From NCBI GenBank assembly GCA_034530615.2, contig JAVRCV020000012.1, positions 1 through 64,000 of the forward strand: DNA of 64,000 nt. The letters run 5' to 3'. The position numbers and the translations under genes were made by a program. The notes beneath the pieces are model-generated. The model saw only the letters and a program-made list of their open reading frames with translations. It was not told where the DNA came from and did no database searches. The number at the start of each line of letters is the position of its first letter. The first letter of the stretch is position 1. This stretch comes from Aulosira sp. ZfuVER01 (GTDB lineage Bacteria; Cyanobacteriota; Cyanobacteriia; Cyanobacteriales; Nostocaceae). Below are positions 12,710-15,265 of the stretch, piece by piece.

Positions 12710-12780
12710 TTGTTAGTTGTCCTTTGGTATTTGGCATTTGTCATTTGGTATTTACCACTAATGACCAATGACTATTGACT
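12710..12780. repeat. Degenerate STRR heptamers in the hupS-hupL spacer, able to fold back
   Basis: TTTGGTA/TTTGGCA/TTTGTCA units followed by complementary ACTAATG/ACCAATG units. Confidence 0.7.
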
Positions 12781-13693
12781 AAACTGTAAAAAAGTCTTCT
12801 TCTGCCCAATCTGGAGCCATGTCTTTGGCTACCATTGTCAGTACGGCGTAGTCTTTTGGCTTGACGCCTGGTGGTAGTTCTTTGGGAACCCCCATAACTG
12901 TTTGAGTTTTAAATACAGTTCCGGGTTTGAGGTCGTAGAAGGGAAATTCTGGTTCGGTGCAACCTAAACAAGGCATACCAGCGCGGGTTTTGGAGGAAAC
13001 GCGGTTCCATAAGATGCGGTTGCAAGAGGAATGAGTCATGGGTCCCCGACAACCTAAGTCGTAAAATAGACAGCCTTTACGCTGACCGAATTCGGCGGTT
13101 GATGCTTTGTAGGCAAAGTGGACGTTACGGGTACAACCTGTTTGGGTGTAGGTGTTGAAGAAGGTTTGGGGACGATTTAGTTCATCAAGGGCAATGTCGG
13201 CTATGCGTCCAGTGGCGATCGCAACTAAAATTTGACTAATCCAGTCAGGATGGGCAGGACAACCGGGAATGTTAATTACAGGTAATCCTGATTGAGTGCG
13301 GAAGTCTTTGCCTAAAAAACCTCCTTCTTGACGCTTGAGAAATTGCAACCCTTGCGATTCGCTAGGGTTGGGGGACATGGCGGGAATTCCTCCCCATGTC
13401 GCACAGTCTCCCACCGCTACAATAAAACTAGCAACTTGGGCTAAGTCTGTTAACCAATCTTTCATTGGGCGATCGGCAAAGCGATTCCATTCCCCTGTAC
13501 CGTTGGGGGCGTTGACCACACTACCTTCAAACACCAAGATATCTAGGGGAATTTTGCCAGAAATACAATCCCGTAGCAGTTGTTGTAAGCGATCGCCTAG
13601 TTCCAAACCTAAGGAGGGATGCCAAAGTACCTTGATACCAAAGTCGGCAATTAAATCGCAGACCGTCGGTTCTTCAGCGTTGAGAAATGACAT
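12779..13693 (-). CDS. hupS: Uptake hydrogenase small subunit, 3' fragment (from Met17); 5' end removed by an interrupting element
   Basis: MSFLNAEEPTVCDLI..., GDCATWGG, PGCPAHP, GCTRNVHF, GCLFYDLGCRGP, CLGCTEPEFP; 304 aa versus ~320 for cyanobacterial HupS; the expected N-terminal MxNVLWLQGGACSGNT is replaced by unrelated sequence. Confidence 0.93.
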   Translation of the reverse strand: MSFLNAEEPTVCDLIADFGIKVLWHPSLGLELGDRLQQLLRDCISGKIPLDILVFEGSVVNAPNGTGEWNRFADRPMKDWLTDLAQVASFIVAVGDCATWGGIPAMSPNPSESQGLQFLKRQEGGFLGKDFRTQSGLPVINIPGCPAHPDWISQILVAIATGRIADIALDELNRPQTFFNTYTQTGCTRNVHFAYKASTAEFGQRKGCLFYDLGCRGPMTHSSCNRILWNRVSSKTRAGMPCLGCTEPEFPFYDLKPGTVFKTQTVMGVPKELPPGVKPKDYAVLTMVAKDMAPDWAEEDFFTV

Positions 13694-13714
13694 ATTATAG
13701 TCACTATAGAATAA
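13688..13714. other. Putative recombination (att) junction between hupS and the element
   Basis: HupS identity ends at the ATG at 13691-13693; adjacent imperfect inverted repeat TATTATAG-TCA-CTATAGAATA. Confidence 0.6.
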
Positions 13715-13726
13715 TAAATTGCAACC

Positions 13727-15265
13727 ATGTCCGAAAAATGGTTTTATGGTCGGGTTTCGACTGTCGAACAACAAGAAGATCGCAACGCACTCAAAAAACA
13801 ACTAGAAAGGGGGAAGAATGTAGGATGCGATCGCTTTTACTGGGATATTCAAAGTCGCACAACCGAAGTGCGTAATGGGTTGCAGCAATTAATTGATGAT
13901 TTAAAAATATCACCAAAGGGTACTGTCAGCGATCTAGTTGTTACTAGGATTGACCGGATTGGGTCATCATCAAAATTATTTTACTCGCTGCTGGAAGTAT
14001 TGCGGAGTAAGAGTATTAGGCTAGTAGCACTAGACCAAACAATTGATACAGAAAGTTTGGGTGGAGAGTTGACGATTGATATTTTGCTAGCCGCCAGTAA
14101 ATTTGAAATAAAAATGTTATCCAGCCGTGTATCTGCCGAACGCAAACATCGGATGGTTCAGAGGAAAAGCCATCGGTTTGCACCGTTTGGGTGGAAGGTT
14201 GTTGATGATTCCTACATCAAGGATGAAAGTTGGTGTGTTTCGCTACTAGAAGACAAGCGTAGTTTTAGAGTTTGGGAACTGGCTTTATTTGTATTTGAAG
14301 TATTTGATAGTTGTGGTAGTGCCAGAAAAACATGCAATATATTAAATGAGATGTTTGGGGTAAGTGGGAAAGTAGACACAAAAACCACAAAATCAAAAGA
14401 GAATCATCGGATCGTGCCCGATGACATCGAGCAAATTGATTTATTGCAAAATAATAAAAAAACTTATCAACGATACCCTTGGACTGGCTTACAGTGGTCG
14501 CCAACAGGGCTAAAAAATTTTTTAGTAAATCCAGTACATGCAGGCGGAACGCCATTTAATGTCACTACATCTAGTCCGTCTGGTAAACAAATCAAGCATT
14601 TTGATCAATGGGATTGCAACTGGGATACTCATGAGGGCATAATTGCCCGCGAACAACACGAACAAATAAAACGCACTATTCGCGGAAATCGCAACAATAA
14701 GTGGGCTGCAAGAAAAGAAGATATTAACCCATTCGCCAATTTATTAAAATGTGGTAGATGTGGAGGCGCATTAACCCGGATGTCGTCCCGACGCGATCGC
14801 AATGGGCAATATACAGCATACTATCAATGTACCTACTACGCCCTTGGACGTTGCGATGCCAAGGAAATGCTTAGTAGTAAAAGTTTAGATTCACAAGTGG
14901 CTGATTTGCTAGTCAGTGAAGCTACTAGGCTAGCTGGTATGGTGGATTTTGGAGAAGACAAGCATCTTGAACCCATAGAAGTTAAAGAACTACGGGAAAG
15001 TCTAGCGGGGCTGGAAAAGTTACCTACTAATCTTTTTGTAGAGAAAGCCAAAGATGGCATCCGTGACCAAATCGCTAGTATCTTAAGTCTGCACGAAAAT
15101 CTCACAAAACGTAGCCTGTTAGTTCGAGAAGAGTTGGTGCAGATGTTCCGCGACCATGAATACTGGGACAGTCGAACATCTGAGGATAAAAAACGCATAC
15201 TAAACAAACTTGTCCGTCGTATTGTTATTGACGGGCGGGTTGTTTTGGCTATTGAGTTTCTTTAG
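13727..15265 (+). CDS. xisF: Large serine recombinase, XisF-like excisase
   Basis: YGRVSTVEQ catalytic Ser motif, YWDIQSRTTEVR, TRIDRIGSSSKLFYSLLEVLRSK, zinc ribbon KCGRCGG...YYQC...C; 512 aa, recognisably similar along its length to Anabaena PCC 7120 XisF. Confidence 0.9.
   Translation: MSEKWFYGRVSTVEQQEDRNALKKQLERGKNVGCDRFYWDIQSRTTEVRNGLQQLIDDLKISPKGTVSDLVVTRIDRIGSSSKLFYSLLEVLRSKSIRLVALDQTIDTESLGGELTIDILLAASKFEIKMLSSRVSAERKHRMVQRKSHRFAPFGWKVVDDSYIKDESWCVSLLEDKRSFRVWELALFVFEVFDSCGSARKTCNILNEMFGVSGKVDTKTTKSKENHRIVPDDIEQIDLLQNNKKTYQRYPWTGLQWSPTGLKNFLVNPVHAGGTPFNVTTSSPSGKQIKHFDQWDCNWDTHEGIIAREQHEQIKRTIRGNRNNKWAARKEDINPFANLLKCGRCGGALTRMSSRRDRNGQYTAYYQCTYYALGRCDAKEMLSSKSLDSQVADLLVSEATRLAGMVDFGEDKHLEPIEVKELRESLAGLEKLPTNLFVEKAKDGIRDQIASILSLHENLTKRSLLVREELVQMFRDHEYWDSRTSEDKKRILNKLVRRIVIDGRVVLAIEFL

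Follow-up and report, generated by a model that had tools for sequence, protein, structure and literature searches.

How can a cyanobacterium make a complete uptake hydrogenase when the first codons of the small-subunit gene, hupS, are missing from the place where the rest of the gene is found? The question is raised by a window of 64,000 nucleotides from Aulosira sp. ZfuVER01 (contig C12:1-64000 of a draft genome of 8.03 Mb in 83 contigs, 99.99% complete), in which hupS breaks off next to a gene for a large serine recombinase. The missing start was found further along the same contig, and we consider it very likely that the two halves are kept apart by a heterocyst-type excision element, of the serine variant already published for hupS nucleotides 49-51.

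A split hupS that rejoins in frame

The initial annotation had described a hupS ending at Met17 (13693), with 304 amino acids (aa) left and about 16 lost, next to an intact hupL. Both statements hold, the intact HupS of the relative G006 being 320 aa long and hupL consisting of a single frame of 531 aa. The tblastn search that it had proposed for the missing 5' fragment recovered this piece at C12 76340->76285, where 18 out of 18 residues are identical to G006 HupS, while the 3' fragment is identical to it at 297 of 304 positions. A six-frame motif scan placed the HupS N-terminus only once in the genome, on C12 and on the same strand as the 3' fragment. An intact hupS elsewhere, the outcome that the initial annotation had set against its own proposal, was not found, as tblastn of the genome with G006 HupS as query matched only the two pieces.

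The halves are broken at codons 17/18 and lie 62,599 bp apart in direct orientation, with a stop codon two codons past the break of the 5' fragment (Table 1). Removal of the 62,599 bp in silico gives an in-frame HupS of 320 aa, which supports, as a mechanism, the earlier claim that full-length HupS needs excision. The same join puts hupS-3' and hupL next to the hupS start and its upstream region, where an accessory/hyp block follows (NifU-like/Rieske, NHL, hypF and more hyp-like open reading frames, ORFs). In the relatives G006 and G008 the site is empty, both flanks being joined and collinear at 86-92% nucleotide identity. On the other side, downstream of hupL, gene order is unlike that in G006 and G008; positions 9420-11110 of the window have no alignment to these loci and contain a 136-aa ORF without a Pfam match.

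The lost N-terminus had been said to hold the proximal Fe-S ligands in a GGACSGN motif. The motif is indeed located in the 5' fragment, and the solved Huc small subunit 7uur has it conserved as well. We take Cys12 and Asn15 of the motif to be proximal-cluster positions, the Cys presumably being a cluster ligand; a passage on this role was not found in the one review checked. The motif bears on the alternative that excision is unnecessary, with translation of a shorter HupS beginning at Met17 under a promoter located in the element end. The break does leave an ATG with an open frame of 304 aa, preceded immediately by TATAAT. However, with TATAAT abutting the ATG there is no room for a transcription start, the promoter scan gave no promoter on the minus strand, the lost piece carries the conserved motif, and the 5' fragment has been kept identical at 18 of 18 residues some 62 kb away, all of which makes a shortened product highly unlikely. 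Still less credible, to the point of being negligible, is an assembly artefact, as a draft of this many contigs might suggest: single contigs of two runs span the left junction and show no difference there, although this DNA may itself derive from these runs, and the identical junction is found in 29 other genomes and in print, in a 2016 survey (PMC4874684).

Table 1. Positions of the hupS halves, the element ends and the element contents (window coordinates unless contig C12 is given).
Feature	Position	Strand	Basis or remark
hupL, uninterrupted single 531-aa frame	11114..12709	-	open reading frame, family scan
hupS 3' fragment, Met17 to stop, 304 aa	12779..13693	-	open reading frame, family scan, tblastn
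Left direct-repeat copy ATGTCATT; predicted crossover dinucleotide TC at 13690-13689 (Ser18 codon)	13686..13693	-	
Element, window portion	13694..64000	.	continues past window end on contig C12; total 62,599 bp
Conserved element-side arm TTCTATAGTGACTATA, putatively recombinase-binding; inverted repeat with the element's far end	13696..13711	-	
Large serine recombinase, hupS nucleotide-49 clade (XisF family), 512 aa; Ser11 in YGRVS motif	13727..15265	+	Pfam, NCBIfam, tree
Cargo: Wzc-like polysaccharide tyrosine autokinase / chain-length protein	16191..18359	-	family scan
Cargo: polysaccharide cluster (Wzm/Wzt ABC exporter, glycosyl-, methyl- and acyltransferases, DegT aminotransferase)	19562..64000, past window end	+	
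Cargo: ISAs1 transposase	31040-32179		
TrbI-domain gene closing the cargo	C12 74648-76243		beyond window
Right copy of ATGTCATT, second inverted-repeat arm on element side	C12 76292-76285	-	
hupS 5' fragment, codons 1-18 including GGACSGN motif	C12 76340->76285	-	outside window; six-frame motif scan, tblastn

An intact, conserved recombinase and conserved symmetric ends

The recombinase ORF starts after a 33-bp gap from the end of the hupS 3' fragment, on the opposite strand. That it is a 512-aa XisF-like enzyme, as had been noted from the letters alone, is confirmed by its domains (Resolvase PF00239, Recombinase PF07508 and Zn-ribbon PF13408 in Pfam) and by a score of 524.8 bits on the NCBIfam XisF model NF041201 (cut-off 375). 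Furthermore, its RVST motif aligns with the catalytic domain of the solved DNA invertase 4m6f. Six genes of the source genome pass the NF041201 cut-off, so that a match to this model is no proof of XisF orthology. XisF proper was considered and rejected, given 51% identity to the genome's own fdxN-adjacent XisF (C22), a separate, hupS-specific clade, and hupS as the target. Identity is 45% to the nifK-associated enzyme of the same genome and 90% to the enzyme of UTEX 2349, whose locus ends at the published coordinate. The earlier view of an fdxN-type serine enzyme acting on hupS thus stands as far as a serine-recombinase element is concerned, but not as to XisF itself, nor as to its implied novelty, the arrangement having been in print since 2016 (PMC4874684). 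A sigma-70-like site (13687-13715, plus strand, 10/12) overlaps the left junction before the recombinase start and could be a lead for autoregulation of the recombinase, although it is not above chance (1 versus 0.6 +/- 0.7 in shuffles, not significant).

The element is bracketed by an 8-bp direct repeat that starts at hupS nucleotide 49. With 299 copies in the genome, this repeat was rejected as stand-alone evidence; the insertion site is fixed by the in-frame join together with the empty site in G006 and G008 and the identical junction in 30 out of 301 genomes. Attachment (att) sites of large serine recombinases consist of an imperfect inverted repeat around a central dinucleotide, in an attP/attB layout. 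In the ten genomes with both ends fetched, and with the TC of ATG-TCN taken as the centre, the two element-side arms agree as inverted repeats at 13-17 out of 22 positions, and the hupS-side arms at just 8-11 out of 22. Among 20 centres, TC scored highest in each of the ten (one tie; other centres average 5-6.5), these genomes being kin and thus not independent. In the relative G007 the two ends have only ATGTC exactly in common, and both this core and the GTC core of Calothrix PCC 7103 include the TC. Judged from these alignments, the element ends would fit the attP/attB layout, with a non-palindromic core in direct orientation expected to give excision and the crossover position predicted.

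All 19 loci from a recombinase search carry the hupS junction and the conserved arm as here, and their enzymes fall into one clade, with 72-96% identity, apart from the genome's own XisF and the nifK-associated enzyme; the clade has 20 members and an SH-aLRT support of 100, taken from a quick tree only. The junction pattern was found in 30 out of 301 genomes of the family, in 10 out of 67 genera and in nine of the 14 other members of the genus, counts that share one collection with the 19 named loci and overlap with them, and are therefore not additive. A reversed control pattern occurred in none of the 301 genomes, and the intact-junction pattern in 247. Of the 30 junction carriers, 26 are without an intact junction and four have a second, intact copy.

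The ratio of nonsynonymous to synonymous divergence (dN/dS) from the present genome was 0.08-0.13 for the recombinase, in 14 pairs (the equal-length loci among the 19), and 0.03-0.07 for hupS-3', in 12 of these pairs; between element-bearing relatives, hupS gave e.g. dN 0.009-0.014 versus dS 0.15. By these values, the recombinase and the split hupS are assessed as being under purifying selection. The hupS-3' frame is 304 aa long in 15 of the 19 loci, and 18, 83, 276 and 295 aa in the other four, one of which is at a contig end. A dead element, with hupS effectively a pseudogene and the strain without uptake hydrogenase, is very improbable in this light. The four carriers with a second intact junction would agree with such decay, but recombinase, both hupS halves and hupL are all open frames, the hyp block follows, purifying selection is seen also between element-bearing relatives, and tblastn gave no second hupS copy in the source genome.

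In 11 out of 12 pairs with the present genome, the recombinase has diverged less than hupS at fourfold sites, and the genomes with the closest alleles of hupS, G006 and G008, are without the element. Taken together, this suggests lateral movement or repeated loss, the comparison not being a formal test.

Several relatives have hupS arrangements of other kinds. G005, G007, G010, G014 and G003 each have an additional hupS copy, more divergent (85-88% identity), whose N-terminal junction is intact. In G012 the gene is in four pieces, at C57 10629-10850 (-), 44253-44852 (+) and 76476-76613 (+), with the 5' piece on C153; as one piece is on the opposite strand, restoration would need inversion plus excisions. 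The middle break in G012 (TGEWNRFAD region) corresponds to the repeat listed for Calothrix NIES-4101 hupS I/II. A break near codon 275-281 occurs in G001, G011, G012 and G013, a site outside the two variants (nucleotides 49-51 and 610) of the 2016 table, and in G013 the last hupS piece is about 59 kb off, on the opposite strand.

Probable excision, its timing and the cargo

The source genome harbors hetR (PF03574) and nifH, nifD, nifK and nifB, and by this gene content qualifies as that of a heterocyst former. About five interruption elements are present in it, the hupS element included. In nifD, GGATTACTCCG repeats are located 19 kb apart. An XisF has nifS and a 3' remnant resembling fdxN as neighbors, at a distance of 38 kb from nifB, and serine recombinases accompany the fragments of nifK-like and nifE-like genes; the names of the split nif genes rest partly on recognition of their sequences. 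The other interruption elements are found at C22 9171-77043, C56 39596-44053 and C63 28207-29007, with about 38 kb for fdxN. Two more XisF-family genes, at C22:42584-44125 and C57:1036-2369 (broken near the contig end), are without an assigned target.

In all likelihood, the recombinase would excise the element as heterocysts differentiate, with hupSL and a 62.6-kb circle as the products. It would bind the two junctions, resembling attL and attR, and cut around the non-palindromic TC at the centre of the inverted repeat, whereupon the chromosome would be rejoined and the circle released with the recombinase gene and the polysaccharide cluster on it. If the fdxN, nifD and hupL elements are a guide, this would take place late in heterocyst differentiation, possibly with XisH and XisI supplied in trans, and the uptake hydrogenase would be made after excision. 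The cargo would then be neighboring host DNA captured by local rearrangement, and not conserved element machinery.

Several points can be set against this proposal. Neither xisH nor xisI (PF08814/PF08869) was found on contig C12, hence none in the element, which means that any directionality factor acts in trans or is unknown; on other contigs the two families have 15 and 12 matches, respectively, and about ten full-length xisH-xisI pairs occur in the genome, none on the hupS contig. A simple pattern gave no NtcA-site match upstream of the hupS 5' fragment. The dN/dS values against the present genome partly reflect history before the insertion. No rejoined or circular junction was seen in the assembled contigs of four DNA runs, which drop rare forms and so speak neither for nor against excision; among the loose ends listed for the contigs of these runs (nine others were unlisted), none fell at 13686-13693, the left junction being the one covered. 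Lastly, no experimental excision study of the hupS nucleotide-49 variant was found in the literature, most subscription journals lying outside the search.

Excision may also not be tied to heterocysts, but be constitutive at a low level or triggered by stress or hormogonium formation, as part of the cycle of a still-mobile integrative element. The patchy spread over 30 of 301 genomes and 10 of 67 genera, with the closest HupS proteins (G006, G008) encoded in genomes without the element, as well as the low recombinase divergence that suggests lateral movement, would fit such a cycle, and triggers other than heterocyst formation are discussed in the 2016 survey (PMC4874684). We nevertheless find it quite unlikely. 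According to the same source, population-wide excision would lose the element unless it was re-integrated, and hupS is described as heterocyst-linked; moreover, the layout matches that of the fdxN element, and sister elements in Calothrix NIES-4101 are rearranged in heterocysts (PMC11249958). Mobility and heterocyst-specific excision are in any case compatible and do not exclude each other.

Excision would place the cargo genes on the circle. Glycosyltransferase families were matched by 17 of the 47 cargo ORFs scanned, and the remaining functions include the Wzc-like kinase, Wzm/Wzt, an aminotransferase, methyl-, acyl- and carbamoyltransferases, the ISAs1 transposase and one TrbI-domain protein. 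Pfam pointed to no phage genes among these 47 ORFs, and the G+C content in 3-kb bins, 0.33-0.44, is similar to that of the flanks. One cargo protein of 989 aa (34576-37545) combines DUF4082 repeats, Big_1 and a DMF-amidase beta-like C-terminal domain; its homologues, 30-39% identical, are paired in the clusters of relatives.

Elements with both ends on one contig were available from six relatives and span about 17-77 kb. The only gene common to these and the present element is the recombinase (48 own-element ORFs, E<=1e-10), and the polysaccharide cluster as conserved element cargo was rejected on the same count. An orthologous cluster, with Wzc 76-84% identical, is instead found in eight of the 14 other genus members. 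In six of them (G002, G004, G005, G007, G010 and G014) it lies outside the element, past the hupS 5' fragment by about 5.5-6 kb, while in G012 it is present but unplaced. G011 has the cluster inside a different hupS element of about 55 kb, with a break near codon 278 and an unrelated serine recombinase of 438 aa (24% identity). Among the 14, the cluster was not found in G001, G003, G006, G008, G009 and G013. Gene order was mapped in G002, G007, G010, G011 and G014, and G004 and G005 were placed by coordinates only. Read most simply, the genus has a variable polysaccharide locus adjoining hup/hyp, which has twice been trapped between element ends, in agreement with the conclusion of the 2016 survey that element content is dynamic (PMC4874684).

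In G002, G010 and G014 the cluster is flanked by two outward-pointing paralogues with a TrbI domain, and in G007 the near one only was present within the stretch fetched; such flanking genes may mark or mediate movement of the cluster. The 77-kb element versions of G007 and G010 contain ORFs resembling nonribosomal peptide synthetases/polyketide synthases and a TonB-type uptake cluster, their N-termini having been compared by inspection only.

A bolder proposal, which we regard as quite unlikely, is that hupS elements, rather than being passive carriers, capture the polysaccharide cluster repeatedly, that heterocyst differentiation moves a whole surface-polysaccharide pathway onto the circle and alters its dosage or expression by cell type, and that the element still moves between genera as a site-specific integrase with a target in most of the family.

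Relation to published elements

Four hupS elements in two variants, at nucleotides 49-51 and nucleotide 610, were reported by Hilton, Meeks & Zehr in 2016 (PMC4874684); hupS interruptions in genome surveys had also been mentioned in the initial annotation. Table B of that survey places serine hupS elements at nucleotides 49-51 in Rivularia PCC 7116, Calothrix PCC 7103 and S. hofmanni UTEX 2349, a variant seen in 3 out of 38, and the repeats given for the published elements are ATGTCAT, ATGTCATTTCTC and GTC at hupS nucleotides 49, 49 and 51. Elements are counted there as one variant when they share the gene and a position within 10 bp, and ATGTCATT at nucleotide 49 lies within these 10 bp of the published position.

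Gene, site, repeat and recombinase class have thus been in print since 2016 (PMC4874684), and the arrangement is not new; as a discovery it consequently matters little. Its practical weight lies in annotation, where a hupS of this kind would be called truncated or be given a false start, and strains with a split hupS could be misjudged as lacking uptake hydrogenase. Four modest additions were not found in the literature examined: the variant is common, with 30 out of 301 genomes versus 3 out of 38 in the survey; the position of the att sites can be narrowed down to the dinucleotide, making an excision assay in E. coli straightforward; an element without xisH/xisI offers a clean test of trans action of XisH and XisI; and the cargo is a reshuffled host neighborhood.

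The closest known counterpart is that of [Scytonema hofmanni] UTEX 2349 (Tol9009DRAFT_00061200), which shares hupS position 49, the repeat ATGTCATT(TCTC) and a serine recombinase 33 bp from the end in opposite orientation, but measures 258 kb as compared to 62.6 kb here (survey data); the likeness concerns site and recombinase. The elements of Rivularia sp. PCC 7116 (#1, ATGTCAT, 91 kb) and Calothrix sp. PCC 7103 (#4, GTC, 30 kb) belong to the same variant, with a serine recombinase at the 'end' on the opposite strand, and differ in size and in the spacing, 42 and 134 bp, respectively, according to the same data. In Calothrix sp. NIES-4101 (CnXisS1-3), hupS is also split by elements, with preliminary evidence of restoration, but into three fragments, with a listed repeat in the WNRFA region (about codon 86) and not at codon 17, and with tyrosine as well as serine enzymes (PMC11249958).

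The fdxN element of Nostoc/Anabaena PCC 7120 (XisF, alr1459; XisH/XisI; 59 kb) resembles the present one in its end-located serine recombinase on the opposite strand, 47 bp from a short repeat, and in the NCBIfam model matched. It differs in target gene and repeat, in that xisH/xisI are not inside the hupS element, and in the enzyme, the one described here being only 51% identical to its own genome's fdxN-adjacent XisF. The hupL element of PCC 7120 (XisC, alr0677) is similar in that its excision restores the gene of an uptake-hydrogenase subunit, but there a tyrosine recombinase and a 16-bp repeat serve a 9.4-kb element in the large-subunit gene, which is intact here.

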